From a virus (Duplodnaviria > Caudoviricetes), in IMG/VR virus record IMGVR_UViG_3300029288_005873, positions 192,001-256,000 of that record: a DNA stretch of 64,000 nt; one strand, given 5' to 3'. Below the pieces are notes generated by a model. The model saw only the letters and a program-made list of their open reading frames with translations, did no database searches and was not told the DNA's origin. The position numbers and the translations under genes were made by a program. This document shows, in pieces, positions 15,287-49,599 of the stretch. Numbering within the stretch: the first letter of the stretch is position 1; every line of letters begins with the position of its first letter.

Positions 15287-15605
15287 TGAGCCCAGCAGGA
15301 TTCGAACCTGCGACCAACTGGTTAACCTGCCACACTTGCTTTCACAAGCCAACTTTTCGGAGTTGTTGTGGTCTGGACCATATCTTCACCCTCAACATTA
15401 CTTGGTCGGGTGTTCTGCTCATGGCCTCTGAGGACTCCCAAAATATTCTGGGTTGCCTGCGGATTATCCAATCTTTAACATTTTTACTCATAGTGAGTAG
15501 TTAAAGCTCTAAGGACGTTCCCGCATATCGCAGAATTCATTTCATATATTACTATATGAACGCTCCAATCGAAGCCAGTTGCTCTGCCAACTGAGCTATG
15601 GGCCC
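15287..15605 (-). tRNA. tRNA-Lys(UUU), intron-containing (exons 15572-15605 and 15287-15325)
   Basis: GGGCCCA..ACTGG-CTT^TTAA-CCAGT..GCAGG-TTCGAAT-CCTGC-TGGGCTC-A. Confidence 0.93.
15326..15571 (-). ncRNA. group I intron in tRNA-Lys anticodon (34/35)
   Basis: P1 GCUU^C/GGAGC with U.G at the splice site, R CUCAGAGGCCA, S AAGAUAUGGUCC, terminal G. Confidence 0.9.
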
Positions 15606-25737: not shown

Positions 25738-26080
25738 TGGTGGGCCTGTCCGGACTCGAACCGGAAACCCGCGGTTTATGCAAACTATCTACGTGTTTCC
25801 ACGCCGCTTTTCAGCGTTTGTAGTCTGGACTATCCCTTCCCTTTCGGGTCTGCCGTCTAGTCTCTACACCTTCAGGATTTCTCCCGCTTGGCTCGGGATT
25901 GGCATGAGAGTTTCCTCTTTTAGCTTTCCCCGACTTTGACAGAATTCACTAACACACTTGCCTCGGTTGCCCGCACATAATATGTTAGAGTCCCAAGTAG
26001 TGAATCATGCGCCAAAAAAGCGTTTAGATTTCAACTACTTAATCAAGACCGCCGCTCTAACCTAATTGAGCTACAGGCCC
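25738..26080 (-). tRNA. tRNA-Ile2(CAU), intron-containing (exons 26046-26080 and 25738-25780)
   Basis: GGGCCTG/CAGGCCC acceptor with C4-G69 and C5-G68, loop CT^CATAA, CCA; tilS adjacent. Confidence 0.88.
25781..26045 (-). ncRNA. group I intron in tRNA-Ile2 anticodon loop (33/34)
   Basis: R GUAGAGACUA, S GGGAUAGUCC (P7 GACUA/UAGUC), extended P1 ending GGGAC, terminal G. Confidence 0.9.
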
Positions 26081-27261: not shown

Positions 27262-27637
27262 TGGACGTGCCGGAAGTCGAATCCGGGTCCGCAACATCTT
27301 GATCGTGAAGTCATCCACATGCTTGGTTTCCATTTACTATTCCAGCAGGCGGGAAACGCGCCCATACTGAAAAGACCCATTGAGGCATTTTCGGTGGAAG
27401 TCTCAGGGTTTGAGTAGCTTCCTTAGTAGCCTCTCCCTACAATCCCTGTCCGATGACGCCGATCCCCAGAGTCACAGGGCCGGAGCCCGAGGTCAGCGGA
27501 TGCTAGGCAGCTGCCAGCATCTGGTTCGCGTTGTTGTTCGCGTTTGTTGTCTGTCCCAGTTTTTTCATGGCAGCCTGGAACACCTGCCAGCATGCACTCC
27601 AGTCTCTCAATACCACGTCGATACCAAATTCACGCCC
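27262..27637 (-). ncRNA. ssrA: tmRNA, tag ANNNANQMLAAA* (27503-27541)
   Basis: 5' GGGCGTGAA..TCGAC, 3' GGACCCGGATTCGACTTCCGGCACGTCCA, G3.U70 pair, GCATG/CATGT helix, tag ending LAAA. Confidence 0.95.
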
Positions 27638-37767: not shown

Positions 37768-38184
37768 TTAGACCTTGGTCAGCTTGTACTTGATGCCGTC
37801 GATCTCGACCGTCTTCCCTTCACAGGTGGGCGGTTCCTGGAAGTTTTCCTCGTATTTCCAACCGTCCACTATGGGATCGTCTCCGTCCCAACCAACTTCC
37901 TTTTCCGATCCAAATACGGAGATGACCGCTTCGTATAACAGAATCAAGCCCTCATTCCTCAAGTTGTTGTTTTCGGCATAAATCTTATTGGCTTGGGCAA
38001 AGAGCCTATTGGCATGAGCATGTAGTTTGAGTGTCGAAGCTTTGACGGCTTTGTTTTTGGTGGCCTCGACATACATATGGTTTGCCGTAGCATAGAGCTT
38101 GTTGGCATCGTCGGCAGATTTCTTACATTCGGCGCGAATCTGACACAGCTTGTTGTAAGCCTCCTGAATCCTTTTGTTGTACAT
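37768..38184 (-). CDS. heptad-repeat protein (paralog of 13949..14526)
   Basis: ANxLYA repeats; C-terminus TCEGKTVEIDGIKYKLTKV. Confidence 0.7.
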   Translation of the reverse strand: MYNKRIQEAYNKLCQIRAECKKSADDANKLYATANHMYVEATKNKAVKASTLKLHAHANRLFAQANKIYAENNNLRNEGLILLYEAVISVFGSEKEVGWDGDDPIVDGWKYEENFQEPPTCEGKTVEIDGIKYKLTKV

Positions 38185-38195
38185 TCTCTACTCCT

Positions 38196-38687
38196 TTATG
38201 GTACTCGATTTGGATCATAACAACAGATAGTACCCCGTTGAATGGAAAAACCTTCACATGAGTCCTTCTGATAACAGCTTTCACAAGGAGATAGTGATAG
38301 GTTTCTCTTATCCTCTACCTCCCACCCGTTCAGTGCCGCCACAGCCTTCAGGATGTTGAGGAAACCAGTGATCCTATCTTTGTCCCAGTTCTTGTGGCTG
38401 AACCGAACGACCGTCCCGGTCGCGATCTCGTTTCCCATGCCATCGAAGAACGGAACGACGACACAGAACTCATTCCGCTCGATATACTCACGAGCTTCGT
38501 GATCCCATTTCTCGCTGTATACGTATTCCCCACACAGGAGAGACACGATGTGCCGAAAGATAGTGTGAGCTACGTCCATAAAACTCTGTCTTTCGCTCCC
38601 CGGACGCATGGATAACTCACAGATGGTCCCCGGCACATCATTATGAATGTGATACACACACACCTTGGAGATTTCGTTGATCTTCAT
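38196..38687 (-). CDS. hypothetical protein
   Basis: 163 aa ORF, AGGAGGGGAG RBS. Confidence 0.65.
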   Translation of the reverse strand: MKINEISKVCVYHIHNDVPGTICELSMRPGSERQSFMDVAHTIFRHIVSLLCGEYVYSEKWDHEAREYIERNEFCVVVPFFDGMGNEIATGTVVRFSHKNWDKDRITGFLNILKAVAALNGWEVEDKRNLSLSPCESCYQKDSCEGFSIQRGTICCYDPNRVP

Positions 38688-38699
38688 GTTCTCCCCTCC

Positions 38700-40205
38700 T
38701 TATGCTCTCGGCTGCTCCGTTGTGACCATGTAGCCGTCCTTGTCCACGATGCGTCTTCCAGACGCCGCCCCGATGGCGGAAGCCTCATCCTCCCACAGGC
38801 TCTCCACCCTTAGGTTGTCCGACACCACGGCGAAGAGACCCAGATGTAGGCGTCGGGAGTATGTCCTTCCGACCAGACCTCGGAAGTCCCCTCTCGCCGG
38901 AAGTCCTCCGATGGGACCGCAGGTCCCTTTCTCCAGAGCCGAAGGCTCCTTGATCTCTTCGGCAGGAGCCGAAGGCTCCTTGACCACGACCTCGTCCTTC
39001 ATGAAATTATCCCACGCTTTCGCCAGCTTCGCGGGCTCCCCTTCGGATACACCGAAGTTCAGCTTCAACTGCCGGAGAACCAACAGTTTCACGCAGCTTA
39101 GCTCCATGCCGGGGATGCTCAGGTTCCTGTACCCGGCACCCTTCTCCGGTTCCCCCTTGACTTTCTTTCCATCCACAAGAAGCGTGGGCTTGGGCTGTAG
39201 CTGAATCCTCACCTTCCTGCCGCCCTTCGGACGAGCAGACCCTCTCTCGACAGCCGACCGATGCTTCGTTCCAGCAACATCCCTGATCACGGATAGAACG
39301 GCGAATACATCATCGGGCGAGGCTCCGTCCACCTCGCAGTTACCGGCGTACACATAGTCGCCGTTGAAGTACTCGGTCAGCTGTACCCTCGTGTTCATTC
39401 CGCCTTCCTTGATAGGTGCGGAGCCGGCGCCTTGGCTGACCGCGGCGGCACTCCCATCTAGCTCGAGCTCACCAGACAGGGGGGATGCGCCGGGTTCCTT
39501 CGGCGCCGGCTCCGCATTCGGCTGCGAGGGCTCGGAGCCGGCGGCGGGCTTGGGCGGAGGAGGGTTGTTGATCGGAAAACCCCAGTCATCGTAGTTTGGT
39601 CGGAACGGAGGCTCGCCCGGTTTTCTCACCAGCGGAGGCGGAGCCTTCTCGTCCTCTTCATCCTCTGGGTCGAACTTGCGACCCGACCTCCACCCTGCTG
39701 CCATCTCCAGCCGGTCCAGCACCCCATCGGATGCCTCCAGAACCGACCTGGCTGCCCCCAGGTTTGCATCCGATACCGCCAGAAGCTCCCCAACATTCGC
39801 AACCGACAGGACCGCCTCCACGGACCTCACAGTAGCCTCGGGCGCCATGCGCCCGCCCCTCAGGTTCCACGGATCGGGCGTGTTGCGAACATCGATCGGG
39901 GCGGAGGCCTTGGGCATCCTGAACTCCCCAGAGTTCCCAGATGCCACACACACCTTCCCGTTCCCGCAGGACATCTCCACGTAGTCCTTGTATCCCCAGC
40001 AGGGAGCCGTAGCCGGCTCCCGGACTTTCCCCTGCGGAACCGTGAGGCTGCGGTCGGTCAACCACGCCTGCTCGTCAACCTCATCAGATAGGGCAGGACC
40101 GTAGGCATCCATGTCCCACCTCTCCGGTGCCTCGACATGGGCTCGGTCATGAAGCTCGTCGCGAACATCGTAGCCGGACACTACTTGGCGCATCTTTTTC
40201 TCCAT
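38700..40205 (-). CDS. large protein with Pro-rich linker
   Basis: 501 aa ORF with GC3-biased codons. Confidence 0.7.
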   Translation of the reverse strand: MEKKMRQVVSGYDVRDELHDRAHVEAPERWDMDAYGPALSDEVDEQAWLTDRSLTVPQGKVREPATAPCWGYKDYVEMSCGNGKVCVASGNSGEFRMPKASAPIDVRNTPDPWNLRGGRMAPEATVRSVEAVLSVANVGELLAVSDANLGAARSVLEASDGVLDRLEMAAGWRSGRKFDPEDEEDEKAPPPLVRKPGEPPFRPNYDDWGFPINNPPPPKPAAGSEPSQPNAEPAPKEPGASPLSGELELDGSAAAVSQGAGSAPIKEGGMNTRVQLTEYFNGDYVYAGNCEVDGASPDDVFAVLSVIRDVAGTKHRSAVERGSARPKGGRKVRIQLQPKPTLLVDGKKVKGEPEKGAGYRNLSIPGMELSCVKLLVLRQLKLNFGVSEGEPAKLAKAWDNFMKDEVVVKEPSAPAEEIKEPSALEKGTCGPIGGLPARGDFRGLVGRTYSRRLHLGLFAVVSDNLRVESLWEDEASAIGAASGRRIVDKDGYMVTTEQPRA

Positions 40206-40240
40206 GGGGTCCGAAGGACCCGAAAAGGTTGATCCCCCAG

Positions 40241-40888
40241 CTACCCCTGACGCTTCACTGTCGTCCTGCCCGGCTCCCTATCCAGAACCACAAGACCTCG
40301 CCTCATCGGCTCAGGCCTGGACTTGTCACCAGCTGAGAACTTCCATGCCTTGCCGTCTCGCGAACACGTCGGGTTACGACACTCGAAGCCATCCGCAGAC
40401 CTGCTGACCGACCACCTCTGACGGCAGTTCGGACACTTCGGCATCGTCTCAGACGGAGGTCCCGATACCATCACCATCTCTATCCCCCTATCCTCCTTGC
40501 CGCCCATGAAGTCCAGCACTCGATCAACATGCTTACACTCGTCTTCGGAACAAGGCGGTCCGCCCGGCTTCCTGCCATCACAGCACATCGAGGATACTAC
40601 CACACCATCCTTGTATGACAAGGACACGTAATGCATGATGGGAAACCACTTCACCCATCCGCACTCCCTCTTGTCCTCGCTACACCTTCCGTTTTTCAGG
40701 CATCCGTGGCACGTCGGATGCCAGTCAGAGACGCGGTATGCCCTGCTCCCCGTCCCAAGCCCGGCGGGAGCTTCGGGCTTAGGAGCCTTCGGCTCCTTGC
40801 CCATGATTCGGTCGATCGCCGCCCCTGTTTCCGCCAGCTTCGCCATCGTGGCAGCAAGTCTGGACCTCAGAACGTCAGATCGCCCCAT
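40241..40888 (-). CDS. multi-zinc-finger (SWIM-like plus ribbon) protein
   Basis: CHGC, CC..CKH, CPNC..C...C; start MGRSD after AAGGAGG. Confidence 0.6.
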   Translation of the reverse strand: MGRSDVLRSRLAATMAKLAETGAAIDRIMGKEPKAPKPEAPAGLGTGSRAYRVSDWHPTCHGCLKNGRCSEDKRECGWVKWFPIMHYVSLSYKDGVVVSSMCCDGRKPGGPPCSEDECKHVDRVLDFMGGKEDRGIEMVMVSGPPSETMPKCPNCRQRWSVSRSADGFECRNPTCSRDGKAWKFSAGDKSRPEPMRRGLVVLDREPGRTTVKRQG

Positions 40889-41096
40889 CGTTTCCTCCTT
40901 GGAATCTTCGGGCGTTGCCCTTGAAAACCTCAATACTCTGTGGGTCTCAAGGGCAGCCCCCGAAGGGCTGCTTAAATTCACTATCGTATTTTGGAGTCAC
41001 CGCTTAGTGCCAGGTCATACCATTCCTCTTCAGGTTAGGTTTTTCCTATTCGCACATGCGCTTCTCGCAGTTCTAGACGTGAATTTTTGAAGCTAC

Positions 41097-41364
41097 AACC
41101 TAGGGCCAGGTCATACTCTTTCCCTCGTTAGCAGGCTTTACAACTCATACCATATACACCTATATGGTACACACATACGCTTATATAAGTTTTAAACATG
41201 AATTTGGAGTTATAACCTAGGGCCAGGTCATACCTTTTCCCTCGTTAGCAGGCTTTACAACTCATACCATATACACCTATATGGTACACACATACGCTTA
41301 TATGTTTTAAACATGAATTTGGAGTTATAACCTAGGGCCAGGTCATACCTTTTCCCTCGTTAGC
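41097..41364. repeat. AT-rich tandem repeat, 115-117 bp unit x about 2.3
   Basis: AACCTAGGGCCAGGTCATAC at 41097, 41214 and 41329; internal TACCATATA/TATATGGTA palindrome. Confidence 0.92.
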
Positions 41365-41559
41365 GTGGATTTTGGGGTCTCTCCATTCGCCCATGCGCTT
41401 CTCGCAATCTTTGATGCTAAACAAAGACAAGAAACCACAGGTTACTTCGGGTGCTCTCGCCACGGCATTTGGTTTTTCCTTACGGGCATTAGTGCCCAAC
41501 TGCCTATGACTTCGATATACAAACTTCCCCTCGGGTCCTGCCTGCTGCCTCCCCCTCAG

Positions 41560-41655
41560 TGGCACCAAGTGGGTTTGAACCACCAGCCCTCTCTGTCCGA
41601 GAGTCGGATACTCGGGACCGGAGCCCCGGTTGCCCGCCCCTGTGGCGGTGGTGCC
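41560..41655 (-). ncRNA. 96-nt tRNA-like RNA downstream of rpsL
   Basis: GGCACCA/TGGTGCC acceptor + A, GGTGG-TTCAAAC-CCACT T arm, three or more internal hairpins, no 7-nt anticodon loop. Confidence 0.65.
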
Positions 41656-41715
41656 GAAACGGTGGGACCATAACCCTCGTTAAGCTATGGTCCCACCGTG
41701 CTGCTCAACACTTCC

Positions 41716-42120
41716 CTACTTCTTCGCCCGCTTCACCCCGTACTTGCTCCTGCTCTGGTTCCGGGGGTTCTTCTCACCACCGTTGCGGACCGTGTCTCCC
41801 GCAGCATCCGTCCCCTTGGCACCACGCACGATGTGATACTTCACACCGGGCAGGTCCTTCACCCTGCCGCCCCTGATCAGCACCGTCGAGTGCTCCTGCA
41901 GGTTGTGCCCGATTCCCGGGATGTACGCGATCACCGTGATCCCGTTCGACAGCCTCACCACCGCCACCTTGCGGTTCGCGGAGTTCGGCTTCTTCGGACC
42001 GACGGTGTACACCCTCAGGCACACACCCTTGCGCTGCGGACATCCCTGAAGCGCTGGCGCCTTGGATTTGTTCGCCAAACGCTTCCTACCTTGCCTCACC
42101 AGCTGGTTGATCGTCGGCAT
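41716..42120 (-). CDS. rpsL: 30S ribosomal protein S12 (uS12), phage-encoded
   Basis: [53 protein letters not shown]; GGAGG RBS. Confidence 0.97.
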
Positions 42121-42442
42121 CTCCGTCCTCCTCTTCCTGAAGCATTGCGTCGATTTCCTCGATTTCATCCTCCGAGACACCATTGTCCAGGAGGATTTTC
42201 CTCATTTCCTCGATACTACACTCCTCGAGCACGATCTCCCTGCGATCACCCTTCTTCGCAAGGATGTGGTCCAGCTCCTTCTCATGCTTCGCCGCCTCGT
42301 GCCGCAGACGGTTGACGCACGAAAGAAGCTTCTCGTTCTTCACGTGAGCCTTCTTCAGAAGATCCATCATCTCCTCGGCCATCGATGATACCGTTGATAC
42401 CGCATCCAGACGCTCCGTGACCGAACTCGAATTCGAACCCAT
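42086..42442 (-). CDS. coiled-coil acidic protein overlapping the rpsL start
   Basis: 118 aa ORF, AAGGAG RBS, directly after twister 1. Confidence 0.65.
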
Positions 42443-42481
42443 CGCTCATCTCCTTATCGGGCTGTAATCCTCACGTCCCTT

Positions 42482-42545
42482 TCCATCCCTCTGCGTTTTC
42501 ACGGGCTTGGGACCGTCGTCCCTTTGGGACGGCCGCATTGATGGA
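42482..42545 (-). ncRNA. twister ribozyme (type P1), copy 1
   Basis: UCCAU-CAA-UGCG-GC-CGUCCC/GGGACG-ACGG-UCCCAAGC-CCGU-GAAAA-CGCA-GAGGG-AUGGA. Confidence 0.9.
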
Positions 42546-42790
42546 GCCCGCCTAGCGCCTGGATGCGCATCGGCGGGCGGCACGGATATGTGCCTTGTGC
42601 GCTCCCCAATTGTATGATCCGCATGTCGGGGAATGTCTTCCTCTCGCTTAGCGGGGAAGCTCTGTCCCATGCGGACCGCCCCATGTAGACTGTCCGCTAG
42701 CTGGGGCGCAAATGCCAGCGGACCAAGTATGCTCAAATAGTGACGGGAATCTCATTCCCTCATCCCTTCTGATGCTGTAGCTATCAGCAC
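42546..42790 (-). ncRNA. candidate large pseudoknotted RNA ending at twister 1
   Basis: Intergenic; at least six stems and two loop-to-downstream complementarities (CGCCCCA/UGGGGCG, UCCCC/GGGGA). Confidence 0.5.
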
Positions 42791-42801
42791 CTATTTTTTC
42801 G

Positions 42802-43224
42802 TTAGTTCATCTTGGCGTCCATGGCGGCAACAACATCTGCCGCCATCTCCTCTACCGCCTTGTCGATCCCCATCTCATCGATCATCTCTTGGGCGCTGTC
42901 AGACAGACACATGACATTGACACCCTCCGGCACTAGGTCCAGGTCCTCCTCAGTGAAGAACCCAGCCTCGACCTTGGCGCGGTTCGGAGAGGCTAGGACC
43001 AAGTCCCTGTTGGGCATCTCCACCAGAATGCCGTCGTCCATCAGCTCCACAACCGCATACAGCATCTGTGACCGTCCGAGATCGTCCGAGCACATGTCGC
43101 AGAGCACCTCGAACGAGAAAGGCGCTTTCCTGCCCTCCACCAATCCGAACAGGAAAGCCTCCAGAACCTGGCTCCTCATTGTCTGATACCCGAATATCGC
43201 CTCTTCCGTCCTGTAAATCTTCAT
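42802..43224 (-). CDS. hypothetical protein (possible winged helix)
   Basis: 140 aa ORF, ATGA overlap. Confidence 0.6.
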   Translation of the reverse strand: MKIYRTEEAIFGYQTMRSQVLEAFLFGLVEGRKAPFSFEVLCDMCSDDLGRSQMLYAVVELMDDGILVEMPNRDLVLASPNRAKVEAGFFTEEDLDLVPEGVNVMCLSDSAQEMIDEMGIDKAVEEMAADVVAAMDAKMN

Positions 43225-43267
43225 GGTCGTCTCCCCTTGTATGATGAGGTGGACTCTCCCACGATCT

Positions 43268-43633
43268 CTAGCGCACTTTGAATCCAGCCTCCATGCATTT
43301 CCAGCGCGGAACTTCGGCTCCTACGGAGCCCATGAACCGTTCCGAGAGAAGCCGCGCTGAGAATTCGTCCCTCGTCATCGCGAACGCCAGAACCGCACAC
43401 CACCCCTCCTGCTTGGCCAGGTCCATCGTCAGCAGCTCCATGGGAATGCTCCTGGCGCTGGACAGGGAATTGTTGTCCGTGTCGCTGAGCTTCAGCAGCA
43501 TCTCCAGACCGCTGAGGACCTGTTCCATGTGCGATTCCATGGCATCATCGGTCACGTTATTGCTGACCCAAAGCCGGAGAGACACTACCAGTCCAGCTAT
43601 GAGATCCCTGTTTACCGGAACCATGACTTTCAT
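43268..43633 (-). CDS. hypothetical protein
   Basis: Start MKVMVP after AGGAGG. Confidence 0.6.
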   Translation of the reverse strand: MKVMVPVNRDLIAGLVVSLRLWVSNNVTDDAMESHMEQVLSGLEMLLKLSDTDNNSLSSARSIPMELLTMDLAKQEGWCAVLAFAMTRDEFSARLLSERFMGSVGAEVPRWKCMEAGFKVR

Positions 43634-43720
43634 GTCGTTCCTCCTAGGGTTGTACACCTTTCCAGGAAAATTTCTCCTGGACCGAAATGCCGATCTGAGT
43701 TTTGGGAAAAACGCTAAGGC

Positions 43721-43948
43721 TCAGAAGTCAGAGTGCTCCTTTGTGCGGTAGTTAACCACATCCTCCACAAACTCCTGAATGGAACCTACCCACACTTGGA
43801 TATACTCCGGCAGCCCGAAGGGACGAATTATGTTCTCTGGCTTTGTCCCCTCTGGCACCACACCCAACAGCTCGGGTGAACTGTATGAGCCGCCTATCCA
43901 GCAAACCACGAGCGGTTTCGGTTTGACACGTCTTACCTTGTCAGCCAT
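43721..43948 (-). CDS. hypothetical protein
   Basis: 75 aa ORF. Confidence 0.55.
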   Translation of the reverse strand: MADKVRRVKPKPLVVCWIGGSYSSPELLGVVPEGTKPENIIRPFGLPEYIQVWVGSIQEFVEDVVNYRTKEHSDF

Positions 43949-43986
43949 GGCTTTAACACCTTTTGGCTATTTTTCAGCCACGCATT

Positions 43987-44016
43987 AAAAGCCCCCCAGG
44001 AGGTATTCTGGGGGCT
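43987..44016 (-). terminator. intrinsic terminator
   Basis: GC-rich stem AGCCCCCAG../..CTGGGGGGCT followed by a T run on the minus strand. Confidence 0.75.
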
Positions 44017-44053
44017 CTATGGCTCCGGGTCCTGCGGACCCATCCATGCTTTT

Positions 44054-44260
44054 CTACGTCCCCGCCGTTTCCGCAGCCTCATTGAGGGCTCGGGAGATCC
44101 TTTTGCTGAGCTGGGTCGGGGTCATATTCTCCAAGGCTGCCTCCAGGAGGTTGCCTGCTGCTTCGAGGAGGGTTCGTGTTACGCGATCAAGTTCCAGCTC
44201 GGCGATTGTCCACGTCTCCGCCATCATGGTAGCGACGCTTTCCCTCTGCTCTTTGGTCAT
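44054..44260 (-). CDS. small helical protein
   Basis: 68 aa ORF, AAGGA RBS, directly after twister 2. Confidence 0.65.
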   Translation of the reverse strand: MTKEQRESVATMMAETWTIAELELDRVTRTLLEAAGNLLEAALENMTPTQLSKRISRALNEAAETAGT

Positions 44261-44284
44261 GGCGTTGTCCTTTCACCTACATTT

Positions 44285-44349
44285 CCCCACCCCTCCGCAT
44301 TTGCACGGGCTTGGGACCGTCGTCCCGAAGGGACGGCTGCGTTATGGGA
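44285..44349 (-). ncRNA. twister ribozyme (type P1), copy 2
   Basis: UCCCA-UAA-CGCA-GC-CGUCCC/GGGACG-ACGG-UCCCAAGC-CCGU-GCAAA-UGCG-GAGGGG-UGGGG. Confidence 0.92.
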
Positions 44350-44417
44350 GGGGCGCGAGGCGCCCCTTTATGTAGGACCTCCGGTCCTTGGTAGGGGAGT
44401 TGTAGAGCTTCTAGCTC

Positions 44418-44882
44418 TTAGTCGGTGGTGGGGCGCTCGGCGGGGCGGTCGTCGTCCCAGGTATCGGAGCCGATGGCGACGACGGAGCAGCTGAGCTGGA
44501 GGGCGAGACCGGCGACAGTGGCTTTGCCGTTGGCGTAGAAGCCGCACTTGCCGGAGGCGAAGATACGGGCGGTGGCGACGGTCTGGTCGATTTTGAGGGA
44601 CTTGAGGGTCTGGGGCTCGAGGGCGAGGAACTTCTGGATATCCTCGTCCTTGAGGCGTTTGGGGTCATCGGGCTTGGAGTGGGCGAGGGTGACGTTGAGG
44701 GAGACCTGGAAGGTCTTGGGCTCTCCGGCGACGTCGAGGGTGACCTTGCCGTTGTGGTTGAACCCCACCGAGCCGGTGGAGTTGGTGCGGGGCTCCATGG
44801 CACCGACGCCCAGCTGCTTGAGGCTGATGCTGCCCATGGTCAGGACGTCGCTCTTGAACCCCTCGGTCTGCTTCTTCGACAT
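44418..44882 (-). CDS. tandem FxTGSxG-domain protein between two twister ribozymes
   Basis: Paralog of 29477..29947; strongly C/G-ending codons; AAGGAG RBS. Confidence 0.75.
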   Translation of the reverse strand: MSKKQTEGFKSDVLTMGSISLKQLGVGAMEPRTNSTGSVGFNHNGKVTLDVAGEPKTFQVSLNVTLAHSKPDDPKRLKDEDIQKFLALEPQTLKSLKIDQTVATARIFASGKCGFYANGKATVAGLALQLSCSVVAIGSDTWDDDRPAERPTTD

Positions 44883-44923
44883 GGTACATTCTCCTTCGGG
44901 ACCTTTGGTCCCATGTTAGGGTT

Positions 44924-44988
44924 GCGCCCCTCTGCGTTCGTCCGGGCTTGGGACCGGCGCCTCACCATTGAGGCGGCCGCATTGGCGC
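44924..44988 (-). ncRNA. twister ribozyme (type P1), copy 3
   Basis: GCGC-CAA-UGCG-GC-CGCCUCA/UGAGGCG-CCGG-UCCCAAGC-CCGG-ACGAA-CGCA-GAGGG-GCGC. Confidence 0.9.
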
Positions 44989-45086
44989 TGGAGGGGTTGA
45001 GTATCAGAGCCCCCTCCGGGCTCCGGGGTTGGGCCAGGCTATGCGCCCCCTTCCAACCACTGGCGGCGTCCCGCCAGATGAGATGT

Positions 45087-45266
45087 CTATCGCGTGATTC
45101 CCATCAACTGCTCGGCCTTCCTCGTGTTCCTGGTCCTGTAGTGGAGGGGGCGGCATTTATTGATGTCCCCAGCAGCCCTCCTACGGCTTGGCGGACAGAT
45201 CTCCACCTCCACCGTTTGCCCATCAATCACCTCGATGCGGACATTCTTGGCTTTCATCGCCTTCAT
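45087..45266 (-). CDS. small basic protein (59 aa, below ORF-track cutoff)
   Basis: MKAMKAKNVRIEVIDGQTVEVEICPP..; first ORF after promoter-like motif copy 2. Confidence 0.5.
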   Translation of the reverse strand: MKAMKAKNVRIEVIDGQTVEVEICPPSRRRAAGDINKCRPLHYRTRNTRKAEQLMGITR

Positions 45267-45295
45267 CCTTGGCAGCGATTTTCCCTCGCGGGTTC

Positions 45296-45326
45296 AAAAC
45301 ATCCGCGGAAATTTTTCGCTGCAAAA
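45296..45326 (-). promoter_or_regulatory. conserved 31-bp promoter-like motif, copy 2
   Basis: TTTTGCAGCGAAAAATTTCCGCGGATGTTTT. Confidence 0.65.
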
Positions 45327-45396
45327 ATTTTTCATCCATCGCGCAGGATCTTACTGTTCCGGGAAACTCCTGTGGCAATTACCTCATTTGAGCCTC

Positions 45397-45915
45397 CTAG
45401 GGAAGGATGAGGACTTCACGAAACATAGACCATGTTCCTGGGGCATAGAACCTAATACAATGGTCTATGACGGGATCAATGCTGAATGGGTCCATAAGGA
45501 CCGGTTTTCCGTCATTGTTCAGCATGACCTGAAGGTCTTGTGGCTCCATGTCGTGGTCCAGGAGAGTTTTGGCTATGACCTTCATGTCACTCAGAATCGG
45601 CTCCCAACCTCCTATTGCGTTTAGCAGGGGCATGACGGCGGCAGCCGCATTCCATCCATAGAAGGCGTCCAGGATTTCGACGGTCGGCACGAAGGGGCGC
45701 ATCCTATCCAGGCAGTTGTGTTCCTTCTTCAGTTGGACTGCGTGCTCGGTCAGCGCGACCGCCCGGTCGCCACTGGCGTAGACCAGCTTGTACCCACCTT
45801 CGCCCAGCCAGCGGGAGAACGGGTGCGCTTCCACGATTCGGCGGACACCCGTATCCGTGATGAGCTGTGCTACCCATTCTGGGGCATCTGGGAGTAGGAC
45901 CTCTTGACGCACCAT
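45397..45915 (-). CDS. protein-kinase-like fold protein
   Basis: LGEGGYKLVY glycine loop, DLQVML, LMDP. Confidence 0.55.
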   Translation of the reverse strand: MVRQEVLLPDAPEWVAQLITDTGVRRIVEAHPFSRWLGEGGYKLVYASGDRAVALTEHAVQLKKEHNCLDRMRPFVPTVEILDAFYGWNAAAAVMPLLNAIGGWEPILSDMKVIAKTLLDHDMEPQDLQVMLNNDGKPVLMDPFSIDPVIDHCIRFYAPGTWSMFREVLILP

Positions 45916-45916
45916 G

Positions 45917-46180
45917 TTATTCCACCTGTTCTAGCTCTCCGATGGAGACGGAAAGTGTGTGGAAGTTAAAGTTGGACCTCAGGAAACCGGAAGCGTCCAT
46001 GACTCGTTCTCCGCGCTCCCAGGCAGCGATGGTGTTCCAGTTCCCGCAGACTGACTCGAACTTGACCTGAACCGGAACGAACGTGTTACCCGTATGGGCG
46101 ACGACCCGTCCCACCTTTGTACGTTTCCCATCGGTCGAACGCCAGATGACCATGGAGCCGATGGCAGGAAGGCTTGTCAT
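45917..46180 (-). CDS. hypothetical protein
   Basis: 87 aa ORF, ATGA overlap. Confidence 0.55.
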   Translation of the reverse strand: MTSLPAIGSMVIWRSTDGKRTKVGRVVAHTGNTFVPVQVKFESVCGNWNTIAAWERGERVMDASGFLRSNFNFHTLSVSIGELEQVE

Positions 46181-46473
46181 TCCTGCACGATGTGGGGTCC
46201 CTCGTGGTCCTTTGCCGTGCGCCAGCAGTAGGTGCGCCCTTCGAGGGTAATATACATTCCAAGCTCATCCTTGCCGGTGAAGGTGCCGTACTGGACGACT
46301 CGGTTCCAGACTGCCATGGATACTTTCTCCATGACCGGGAGGATGTGCTCGGCATTAATCTGCTTCACCTGAGGACGGACGCTTTCGGCAAAGAGAGCGT
46401 ACGCCAGGCTTTCGGCGTCTCCTTTGGTGGGCGCGTTCATTTCCATCTTGATGGTGACCAGGAAGCGTTTCAT
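46177..46473 (-). CDS. hypothetical protein
   Basis: Start re-assigned near MKRFL after AAAGGA. Confidence 0.55.
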   Translation of the reverse strand: MKRFLVTIKMEMNAPTKGDAESLAYALFAESVRPQVKQINAEHILPVMEKVSMAVWNRVVQYGTFTGKDELGMYITLEGRTYCWRTAKDHEGPHIVQE

Positions 46474-46661
46474 GATGGTCATTCCTTTCTGGTGTCCGTA
46501 GAACAGGAAAAACATACAGGAGCTGCCATAGTGCTCCAGCCGCAGCTTCCTGGAGATGTCGCATTTCCCCTCGATGCGAACTCCCATGCACGAGGTTTCC
46601 ATACCCATGTACTACCAGTGAGCACAGAAGTTACAGGTGTGTCTGTTGTCCATGGCTTCTC

Positions 46662-47000
46662 CTACGGCTGGACGGGTCCCTCGGCGAAATCCTGGCGCGC
46701 CTCCAGGTCGATCTGGCGGTACCGCGCCATCTTCTCCTCGTAGTTGGGCTGGCGAGGGAGGTACTGACCGGCGTCGCCGAAGTCCTCCAAAGGGCAGCAG
46801 GACTCCATGCAGCTGACATGGTCGAGAACGTTCAGGAAATACCAGGCAGCCTGGTCAGCGTCGTTCAGCATGGGGCGGAACCCGAGGTACGACGGAGCCG
46901 TCTCGGGGAGCTCGAACCGGCGAAAGAAGTAGCCGTCGAAGTTGCTCTTGTTCAGGACAGCCACGTATCTCCTGCTGGGGGACACCATGTTCTTGGTCAT
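46662..47000 (-). CDS. hypothetical protein
   Basis: 112 aa ORF, AAGGAG RBS. Confidence 0.6.
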   Translation of the reverse strand: MTKNMVSPSRRYVAVLNKSNFDGYFFRRFELPETAPSYLGFRPMLNDADQAAWYFLNVLDHVSCMESCCPLEDFGDAGQYLPRQPNYEEKMARYRQIDLEARQDFAEGPVQP

Positions 47001-47030
47001 TGGTTCTCTCCTTGAGGGACCTGCGGTCCC

Positions 47031-47702
47031 CTACTTGCGGTTGAACTCCTCGTAGTTCTTGAGCTGGGGGTCGTTGTCCTCGCCCCACCGCTGGTTCAGA
47101 CCCCGCTCCAGGAACAACTCCTCCTGGAGATGCGCCCATTCGATCGCCTTGGTGGCATTAGAGATGCTCGCTCTTACCAAGGCGGTACCGATTTCGTCAC
47201 TATCCCAGCACTCGTCGATGCTGGAACAGGAGCCGCGCCCCACCTTCGGGTCCAACCTGATGGCTTCCACCAGAGCGGGCATGTTGACCGCAGCTTTCCA
47301 GGCGGTCAGCGCCGCGCAGTCAACCGTCCGCTGCCACAGGCACTCATCGCACTTGGCGCACTTCGCGCAGGGGTGTACTACTTGCTTCACCTCGCGGGTC
47401 GCGAACCAACCCGCATCCGGGTTGTGGGTCTCCTTCCGGAACTCGGAGAGGTCGGCAGTGTAGCCACCAGAGCAGCGCAGGCACTGACTCCACCACGCGC
47501 CATTCTGCTGAACCTTCCAGCCACGGATGACGACCTGGTTCTTCAGGGTCGGATGAACCTCAGGAGCGCCACACGTCGGACACTCCATCGGCGTACCCTG
47601 AACGTGGAACCGCTCGGTCTGGCTTACACTGCCGCACATGCAGGGAAGCGCCCAGGAGGGACGCGCTACGCCCAGCAGACGACCGCACTTTGCGCACCGC
47701 AT
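47031..47702 (-). CDS. Cys-rich multi-zinc-finger protein
   Basis: Several CxxC pairs, AAGGAGG RBS. Confidence 0.65.
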   Translation of the reverse strand: MRCAKCGRLLGVARPSWALPCMCGSVSQTERFHVQGTPMECPTCGAPEVHPTLKNQVVIRGWKVQQNGAWWSQCLRCSGGYTADLSEFRKETHNPDAGWFATREVKQVVHPCAKCAKCDECLWQRTVDCAALTAWKAAVNMPALVEAIRLDPKVGRGSCSSIDECWDSDEIGTALVRASISNATKAIEWAHLQEELFLERGLNQRWGEDNDPQLKNYEEFNRK

Positions 47703-47968
47703 CAGAGGCCTCCTTGCTAGAAAGACACCGGCTTCCTGTCGAGTACGACCATCTCGTGAATCCTGGCCGAGTCGATACCCGACTCCTTCGCAGCCAGGAC
47801 CAACGTCCTGCTGTACATCTCGCTGTCGCCGTCACGCAGATAACGGCGAAGCAGGTTGATGTACAACACCGTGGCGTACGCTTTTCCGGGCTCCATGAGA
47901 ACCCTCCCGAGTTGTTGCGACCCCCCCTATGAAACCTGGGTCTTTGTTGGGATTTTCGATCGGTTTTG

Positions 47969-48229
47969 CTAGCGCACCCTCGTCTTGGCGGCGAGGATGG
48001 CCGCGATCGCAGCGCGGCGCAAAGGTCGCGAGCGACCCGCAGCCTGAAGCGCCTCCATGAGCGGCGCCGCCTTGGGAAGCGCCAGGTGAAGACGCGACCG
48101 AGCGGTCAGCAGATCACGGTCAAACTCACCCGCAATCATGCGGTACACCATGGTGTCCTTGAGACCCGCACGCTCGAGGCGGTTGATGAACCTGTACGCC
48201 TGCGTCCTGAAAGGGCACGTCACTCTCAT
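47969..48229 (-). CDS. small basic protein
   Basis: 86 aa ORF, AAGGAGG RBS. Confidence 0.6.
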   Translation of the reverse strand: MRVTCPFRTQAYRFINRLERAGLKDTMVYRMIAGEFDRDLLTARSRLHLALPKAAPLMEALQAAGRSRPLRRAAIAAILAAKTRVR

Positions 48230-48308
48230 GTCTCGACCTCCTTGGGTTGGGTAAGCACCTGAACGATTTCAGGCACTTACCGAGCCTAAAGCTCGGTCGA
48301 TTAGGACG

Positions 48309-48695
48309 CTAAGCGTCCTTGTCCGCATCCAGCAGGTCGCGCTGAATGCTGTCCACCTCAGCTAGCACTTCCGCCAGCCGCTGCTCCAACTTGACCAACT
48401 GGAGACCACGCTTCAGGGGCGTCATGTCCTCGTCCGCCTTCACACGTTCCAGTCTCGCATGAAGCACGCGGGCTGTCGCCATCAGCGAAGTCACTCGCCT
48501 CTCAGGCGTTAAATTCCCCGCCTTGAGGTCATCCGTGTTCTCCACGCCACGCCCTACCGCCCTACCACCCACTAGCTCCTCCAGCCGCTCGGCGCTCTGG
48601 TTCTTGATGTTGCTCGCCCTCGTCGCAGAGCGCCCGCCCCTCGGGCGGATTTGCTGCTGCTCCACGTACCCGAACACCACCTTGACGTCAGCCAT
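48309..48695 (-). CDS. coiled-coil protein
   Basis: 128 aa ORF, AAGGAGGAG RBS. Confidence 0.65.
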   Translation of the reverse strand: MADVKVVFGYVEQQQIRPRGGRSATRASNIKNQSAERLEELVGGRAVGRGVENTDDLKAGNLTPERRVTSLMATARVLHARLERVKADEDMTPLKRGLQLVKLEQRLAEVLAEVDSIQRDLLDADKDA

Positions 48696-49374
48696 CGATC
48701 TCCTCCTTGGCGAAAGCCGCTCGGCACGCCTCCCGCCTCGCCATCATGACGCGCCGCGCCTCCTTGGCAGCCCGGCGCTCCGCCCTGGCGTTGCGATCGG
48801 CGTACCCATTCGGATCGGTACGCCGCCACTTCTCCCCCATCTCCGCCGCTCGAGCCGCCTTGCGCTCCTTGCGGTTCTGCTGAGCCTTGTGGCTCATACC
48901 CGCTTGGTCCAAGATCTCGCCGCAGCAGAACCCGTAGCCGTACCACTGCTCGCTGCTCGTCGCCCTTAGCGCCAGTGCGACTGGGGTGATGATGGCGCGG
49001 GACGGTATGGAAGGCGGGTACACTATGTCAGCCGGAGTCTTGATATATCGTTCCGGCACTACGGGCTGTATCATCTCCAACCAATCAGAGCGGAACACCA
49101 TCTGGTCCGCTATGGCTGTGATGGCATAGCCTTCGCGCGAACCATTACCTACGCGCGTGGGCGCTCCCATCTCGCGTGCCTGTTTGGCCAGACGCCCATC
49201 CACGCTGCCCTCCCACTTCGCGACAAACTTGCGTCCCAGGCCCGCTACCCAGCGCGCCACCCTTCCTAGCGCCTGGGTCTCGTTCTCCGCCTCCACCATC
49301 CCTACCACCTTGGTGGGGAACCGAAGGGCATGGCAAAGCAGGATTGCCTGGTTCAGGATGACATACCGTAGCAT
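48688..49374 (-). CDS. hypothetical protein with basic C-terminal helix
   Basis: Start MLRYVIL; first gene after promoter-like motif copy 3. Confidence 0.6.
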   Translation of the reverse strand: MLRYVILNQAILLCHALRFPTKVVGMVEAENETQALGRVARWVAGLGRKFVAKWEGSVDGRLAKQAREMGAPTRVGNGSREGYAITAIADQMVFRSDWLEMIQPVVPERYIKTPADIVYPPSIPSRAIITPVALALRATSSEQWYGYGFCCGEILDQAGMSHKAQQNRKERKAARAAEMGEKWRRTDPNGYADRNARAERRAAKEARRVMMARREACRAAFAKEEIDG

Positions 49375-49425
49375 CTCGCTCCCCTTTCCGCTGCCTTGCC
49401 TCAAGGCGCAAGGCTGGCAAGGTTC

Positions 49426-49456
49426 AAAACATCCGCGGAATTTTTCCGCTGCAAAA
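49426..49456 (-). promoter_or_regulatory. conserved 31-bp promoter-like motif, copy 3
   Basis: TTTTGCAGCGGAAAAATTCCGCGGATGTTTT. Confidence 0.65.
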
Positions 49457-49463
49457 AAATTTT

Positions 49464-49479
49464 TGGCAAGATTTTTGCT
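49464..49479 (+). promoter_or_regulatory. sigma54-type -24/-12 site
   Basis: TGGCAAG-ATTT-TTGCT (GG-N10-GC). Confidence 0.4.
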
Positions 49480-49599
49480 AAGCCGAAAGCGCTACGTGCC
49501 GGGACCTGCGGTCCCTAGTACCACGGATTGTAGCAAGTCGGACTCCGGGGATAACAATACACCGACTTGTACCAAATGCTAACAACGTAGCTATGGCTA

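Follow-up and report, generated by a model that had tools for sequence, protein, structure and literature searches.

What would a large phage gain from a uS12 of its own, a protein buried in the ribosomal decoding centre, and does this copy work inside the host ribosome? The gene lies in the 64,000-nt stretch that we analysed (the window), part of one 441,904-bp IMG/VR virus record of myovirus type, which IMG/VR classes as linear and whose final ~105 bases repeat a stretch close to its start. An initial annotation, made from the sequence of the window, had described a full-length S12 outside its usual operon, with an enlarged loop and substitutions beside the decoding loop, and had suggested either a core-protein swap or an RNA-chaperone role outside the ribosome. 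The gene and its parts are:

41716–42120, minus strand: uS12 (rpsL) gene, 134 aa, intact, single copy (PF00164, TIGR00981, OB-fold model)
41968–42006, minus strand: codons 39–51, with the decoding loop K43–S47 intact and the flanks changed, T41G and L49N (sequence, alignment)
41764–41817, minus strand: extended C-terminal loop, codons 102–119, +10 aa, differing in both length and sequence among members of the phage branch (alignment)
42127–42131, minus strand: Shine-Dalgarno-like GGAGG, presumably serving uS12, within the 3' end of orfU and 7–11 nt 5' of the ATG
42086–42442, minus strand: orfU, 118 aa, a conserved two-helix hairpin of 65 aa plus an acidic tail, overlapping the start of uS12 by 35 nt

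Residue numbers here count the methionine and are thus one higher than the usual E. coli numbers. The 134-aa frame is open throughout and scores 118.7 bits against PF00164 (cut-off 22.3, E 1e-34) and 192.6 bits against the TIGR00981 rpsL_bact equivalog (cut-off 113), confirming an intact uS12 gene at 41716–42120 on the minus strand, as the initial annotation had stated. The motifs PKKPNSA and RVKDLPG were found exactly as quoted there, and the predicted OB-fold core (pLDDT 80–89, with residues 118–134 of low confidence) resembles solved S12 chains. A second in-frame ATG lies 63 nt 5' of the start, and the relatives all begin at the methionine originally chosen. This is the only S12 copy in the whole record. 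Isolation from the usual neighbours was also borne out: S7 and EF-Tu/EF-G are missing from all 441,904 bp, none of the neighbouring ORFs tested matches rpoC, and uS12 does not stand with rpsG at the head of a str operon.

That the surrounding DNA belongs to a phage is evident from its gene content, since the same record encodes terminase (TerL), portal, major head protein (phrog_2522), tail sheath, baseplate wedge and DNA polymerase III; a Gp23 profile search of the genome gave no match. The record probably derives from a landfill metagenome of 2019, of which a 3,670-bp contig corresponds to window positions 41335–45004 with 0 differences at a depth of 28.9 (adjoining contigs, 24.1 and 21.6), and because this single contig spans uS12 without a difference, the chimeric join that the initial annotation had warned of is unlikely, as judged from contigs and not raw reads. 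The orfU–uS12 junction is also matched, with 23 differences, by a 743-bp contig from another study. Among translation genes, the record carries bS21, tmRNA, ~26 tRNAs, an N-truncated RF1-like protein, trigger factor and a CCA enzyme. RimO, RimP and RtcB were likewise not found in the whole genome, so host factors would have to serve in place of RimP and RimO. The bS21 gene (genome 107385–107873, minus strand; L222:11388–11873) has a long basic N-terminal extension and 37 close relatives with a core identity of 59–82%. The RF1-like protein (genome 25687–26367, minus strand; L218:6490–7167) lacks domain 1, and RF-1-domain genes also occur near uS12 in loci L008, L201 and L359. A repair module of the PrfH–RtcB type was considered and is unsupported, the release factor being RF1-like and N-truncated, not PrfH, and RtcB not having been found. 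The tmRNA gene lies at 27262–27637 of the window (minus strand), with counterparts in related loci at L008:4105–4510 and L201:2714–3117.

The phage uS12 is not an isolated oddity. Its best database matches are 67–83% identical and are not ordinary bacterial S12, some 30 of them having long variable loops, and the nearest bacterial S12 reaches at most 74% identity among the GTDB matches listed. About 39 related long-loop sequences form one branch separate from bacteria; once the loop columns are removed, its support is 100/98 (111 columns) and, for residues 1–100, which exclude the C-terminal motif, 94/88; the bootstrap of both trees had not fully settled, and mitochondrial sequences were left out of them. 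A larger quick-mode tree of 120 rows kept 39 of 40 phage-type sequences together (support 84), the exception being the long-loop sequence L330, which was excluded from later sets. Pairwise dN/dS values of 0.11–0.24 for eight pairs of phage uS12 indicate purifying selection. No S7 follows uS12 in any of the 16 loci with more than 1 kb of downstream sequence; six loci have other genes in common with the 442-kb genome, and four adjoin 9–43 tRNA genes. Four more IMG/VR records with uS12 (96–193 kb) all lack S7, and three of these have a terminase or capsid match (TerL in G147 and G149, capsid in G148); G146 has neither with these queries and may be a fragment despite an estimate of 100%. At the level of sequence, an ancestor of these large phages appears to have taken a working uS12 from a bacterium once, the gene having since been kept under purifying selection.

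Several observations were made beside this family. Loci L260, L262, L306 and L351 hold divergent S12 genes with Polyangia-like loops and N49, in which S7 was not seen and which may belong either to phages or to a chromosome that carries a second copy. In L359 (1664–3409), a TROVE/Ro60 gene and two SSB genes lie less than 5 kb from a phage-type uS12. The capsid homolog of G148 (C1:16514–17512) contains one in-frame TAG, possibly reflecting recoding, an intron or an error.

The small gene orfU was missed by the initial annotation. With an orfU profile, the gene was detected directly 5' of uS12 at 11 of 21 loci, and no other match occurred among the 38,564 six-frame segments of the loci analysed; a search of 1.84 billion representatives returned 24 plausible homologs together with two weak matches in long proteins. 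In 21 of the 25 orfU homologs (query included), the C-terminus is a shifted-frame reading of the uS12 start, compared to 11/324 in the control, under an overlap criterion tightened to a 3% chance rate (a looser form had 22–54%). Three of the remaining four homologs were looked up, and uS12 lies directly behind all three, bringing the pairing to 24/25. From the loci and the homolog survey together, orfU is practically never encountered apart from uS12, whereas uS12 also occurs on its own (10/21 loci). The predicted fold of orfU is a two-helix hairpin (pLDDT 88), for which we obtained no Pfam, PHROG, Atlas or Foldseek assignment, the hairpin matches being generic; a suspected likeness to bS20 found no support. 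Most likely, orfU is a dedicated helper of phage uS12, putatively an escort, loader or regulator.

We then compared the residues known to matter in the ribosome. Residues K43, K44, P45, N46, S47, E76, H77, R86, D89, G92 and Y95 are invariant in 39 phage-type sequences, K88 and P91 are kept in 38 of them, and the phage uS12 itself has Q75-E76-H77, K88-D89, P91-G92 and K43–S47 complete. S47 is a decoding-centre residue (PMC9304027), and mutations in the decoding loop and at P90/G91 lead to streptomycin dependence (PMC3884664). In the alignment, ribosome-facing residues are kept across the phage branch, the EF-Tu-facing ones included. Beside them, T41 is replaced (by K, G, N or other residues) in 36/39 phage-type sequences, whereas T is kept in 71/72 bacterial rows; L49 is changed in 28/39 (to N in 24), compared to L in 69/72; and R94 has become K in 20/39, compared to R in 70/72. 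A scan demanding a residue other than T at position 41 supplied 7 of the 39 sequences, which makes the T41 and L49 counts partly circular, and motif counts generally are inflated because the family was chosen for its likeness to the query and, in part, by motif.

The flank changes singled out by the initial annotation, T41G and L49N, are thus real, but L49N is less special than it appeared. The N49 motif occurs in at least ~30 GTDB stretches, mostly beside S7; K41 together with N49 is native to mammalian mitoribosomes, as seen in their structures; and many low-GC, mitochondrion-like contigs combine K41 with Q or N49. Changes at T41 and L49 are therefore compatible with a working ribosome. For neither did we find a tested phenotype in the accessible literature.

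Taken together, these data suggest that the phage uS12 is probably built into host 30S subunits, and the reading that we favour, with a probability of roughly 0.45, is a phage-tuned uS12 that replaces the host copy in the ribosome. Selection for function in the ribosome best explains why acidic and factor-facing residues are retained, and a ribosomal role is in line with the bS21, tmRNA, ~26 tRNAs, RF1-like protein and trigger factor of the same genome. The bS21 and bL12 of phages enter host ribosomes (PMC6375957). uS12 does not belong to the set of loosely bound, exchangeable proteins (PMC6375957), so that swapping it would require 30S subunits to be assembled or repaired during infection. 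Starting from the observed layout, we infer that uS12 is made during infection from a short unit with orfU, and that it would compete with host uS12 for 30S subunits under assembly or rebuilding, with orfU escorting, loading or regulating it. With rRNA- and factor-facing residues kept, the ribosome should still work, and the changed flanks (T41, L49, often R94 and G71) and the long variable loop may shape a decoding centre to the needs of the phage. The outcome could be altered stringency, or a host A-site factor that no longer recognises the decoding centre; the data fit either. Tuning is favoured by the recurrent change of T41 and L49 in phages and by the occurrence of K and N there in working mitoribosomes; against it, like substitutions in mitochondria and reduced-genome bacteria may reflect relaxed constraint. 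The absence of orfU from 10 of the 21 loci also counts against the favoured reading. A further step, which we regard as doubtful, is that uS12 and orfU form a two-gene module replacing the decoding-centre protein, with orfU as loader or exchange factor, producing phage-specialised ribosomes with changed accuracy or with immunity to A-site-targeting defences.

The core-protein swap of the initial annotation thus fits best, on account of the residues important inside the ribosome that are kept across the branch, though the insertion, like L49N, turned out less special than implied. A net gain of ten residues (18 where E. coli has 8) is supported by the alignment and by solved bacterial S12 chains, in which positions 1–123 align to phage 1–133, the net insertion consisting of two residues plus eight. 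The stretch from IVRG to RSKYG measures 23 aa here, compared to 13 in 117 of 120 scorable GTDB S12 sequences among the matches listed, and 20–29 aa across the phage branch (loops +7 to +16). Cells can nevertheless have an insertion of 8 residues in this loop, as is normal in 15/80 genomes of the phylum of a Polyangiaceae MAG (Myxococcota) and in ~5/61 Verrucomicrobiota, both among the matches listed. The annotation's caveat that its oddities might be normal in the host clade therefore applies in part to the insertion site and not to the substitutions: the insert-bearing bacteria keep T41 (14/15) and L49 (15/15), and the cases read sit in the str operon. Of the two oddities, the loop is therefore the weaker one, as cells tolerate insertions there and its sequence is not conserved among phages. 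A valine follows RSKYG in nearly all S12 with an extended loop, from cells and phages alike, in the place where unextended S12 mostly has A or T, which may reflect shared origin or structural coupling.

These findings bear on the alternative that survives best, in which the phage uS12 is simply the functional equal of host uS12 and sustains 30S assembly after host shut-off, its loop inherited from an insert-bearing host and then drifting, like the flanks. The cellular insertion with the same valine, the unconserved phage loop and the tolerance of L49N in cells all agree with it. So do the best GTDB matches of the phage GroEL (Myxococcota/Desulfobacterota, 55–57% identity, among the matches listed) and one tree in which insert-bearing Myxococcota adjoin the phage branch (85/85). 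In the S12 phylogeny that the initial annotation had proposed (trees on 100–111 columns), that adjacency is lost once the C-terminal motif is dropped, and a myxobacterial donor bearing the insertion is no more than a lead. Moreover, one protein without the other 20 cannot keep assembly going, and plain replenishment leaves the recurrent T41/L49 shift and the dedicated partner gene unexplained; we consider it unlikely.

Next is an extra-ribosomal RNA chaperone that folds phage tRNA precursors, tmRNA, group I introns or ribozymes, for which the surroundings of the gene matter:

38000–49500, minus strand: GC-rich 11-kb block holding the orfU–uS12 pair (GC 0.55–0.60)
42483–42544, minus strand: twister-P1 ribozyme-like RNA, 41 nt 5' of orfU (E 1e-13, just under the gathering score)
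44287–44348 and 44924–44988, minus strand: further twister-P1-like RNAs, each shortly before a gene
41659–41699, no strand assigned: perfect 14-bp inverted repeat directly 3' of the uS12 stop (sequence)
41559–41655, minus strand: tRNA-Arg(CCG)-like element 3' of uS12, 97 nt (predicted by ARAGORN alone, without an Rfam tRNA match)
15356–15581, minus strand: group I intron, above the Rfam cut-off
25802–26012, minus strand: group I intron, below the Rfam cut-off (E 6e-7)

Near orfU–uS12, neither a sigma-70-type promoter nor a minus-strand terminator was found. Further 3' of uS12 and the tRNA-like element, a ~115-nt repeat is present in three to four copies (window 40990–41364), at which the assembly contigs break. 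In vitro, the uS12 of E. coli promotes T4 group I splicing, and it also helps rRNA to fold (PMC10931766); both group I introns reported by the initial annotation exist, placed by ARAGORN within tRNA-Asn and tRNA-Met genes. With them, the window holds three twisters, and several relatives keep uS12 in or beside arrays of 9–43 tRNA genes. The annotation's splicing idea is weakened by the other carriers: group I introns occur in one of five uS12-bearing records, the four without them being possible fragments. The three twister-like motifs are the only ones in the genome and none was seen in the 21 related loci, so they are not part of the uS12 family unit. A general RNA chaperone would hardly need the acidic E76 and D89, nor should non-specific chaperoning require the invariance of ribosome-specific residues, and we regard this role as unlikely.

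A third alternative makes uS12 a decoy or poison that soaks up a uS12-recognising host factor (a defence effector or an assembly factor) or stalls 30S biogenesis, under the control of orfU. The conserved surface would have to be retained by a decoy as well, the close linkage of uS12 to a small overlapping gene is reminiscent of regulated pairs, and the codon composition of the GC-rich block would fit early expression and a GC-rich host. The remaining translation genes support translation, however, and no residue known as essential is lost, making this reading improbable. Finally, an assembly artefact or a recent non-functional host fragment might be suspected from the GC3 of uS12 (0.85, against a genome mean of 0.40) and from S12 matches in deposited phage records that look like host contamination, but it is highly implausible, as the GC shift is common to the whole 11-kb block, both contigs described above cover the gene or its junction with orfU, no bacterial S12 comes closer than 74% among the matches listed, and the recurrence of the orfU–uS12 pair in many independent samples already contradicts it.

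Phage-encoded ribosomal proteins are already known: bS21, bL12, bL9, bL31, bL33 and also uS9, uS15 and uL11 (PMC6375957), and, in huge phages, S1, S4, S21 and L7/L12, a list without S12 (PMC7162821). The 2019 survey searched PF00164, and S12 is absent from its main text and listed in its supplement solely among the search profiles (PMC6375957). There is no PHROG family for uS12, the landfill virus paper does not mention ribosomal genes, and we found no report of a phage uS12 in the literature searched, subscription papers lying mostly outside it. New here are the phage uS12 family and the linked upstream orfU, both missed by the initial annotation; the orfU pairing could be the part that is new in kind, and the protein that it encodes is a candidate for a new factor of ribosome assembly or exchange. 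Most phage ribosomal proteins reported so far are peripheral and exchangeable; a branch keeping uS12 implies that phages can reach the decoding centre and suggests that they alter the core of the host ribosome, not its periphery alone. The family also offers ~40 natural variants of a loop that ranks among the most conserved in translation, and makes testable, in laboratory E. coli, both the swap of a buried core protein in an infected cell and the existence of specialised bacterial ribosomes.

Compared to the other phage ribosomal proteins, uS12 is likewise a host-derived stand-alone gene that evolves under purifying selection alongside tRNAs, tmRNA and translation factors, in a 442-kb genome that also carries an N-terminally extended bS21; unlike them, it is a late-binding but buried decoding-centre protein that is not loosely bound, and it has its own branch and a dedicated partner gene. 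With the bacterial str-operon uS12 (TIGR00981) it shares a score above the equivalog cut-off, the fold and the key residues, and it differs in lacking rpsG, fusA and tuf, in the changes at T41 and L49, in a loop longer by 10 residues and in an identity of at most 74% among the GTDB matches listed. The insert-bearing uS12 of Polyangia-type Myxococcota and some Verrucomicrobiota has an insertion in the same loop and the valine after RSKYG; theirs, however, is fixed at +8 with a conserved sequence, lies in the str operon and almost always keeps T41 and L49. Mammalian mitochondrial uS12m, in turn, shares K41 and N49 with phage-type sequences, a likeness that is most likely convergence.
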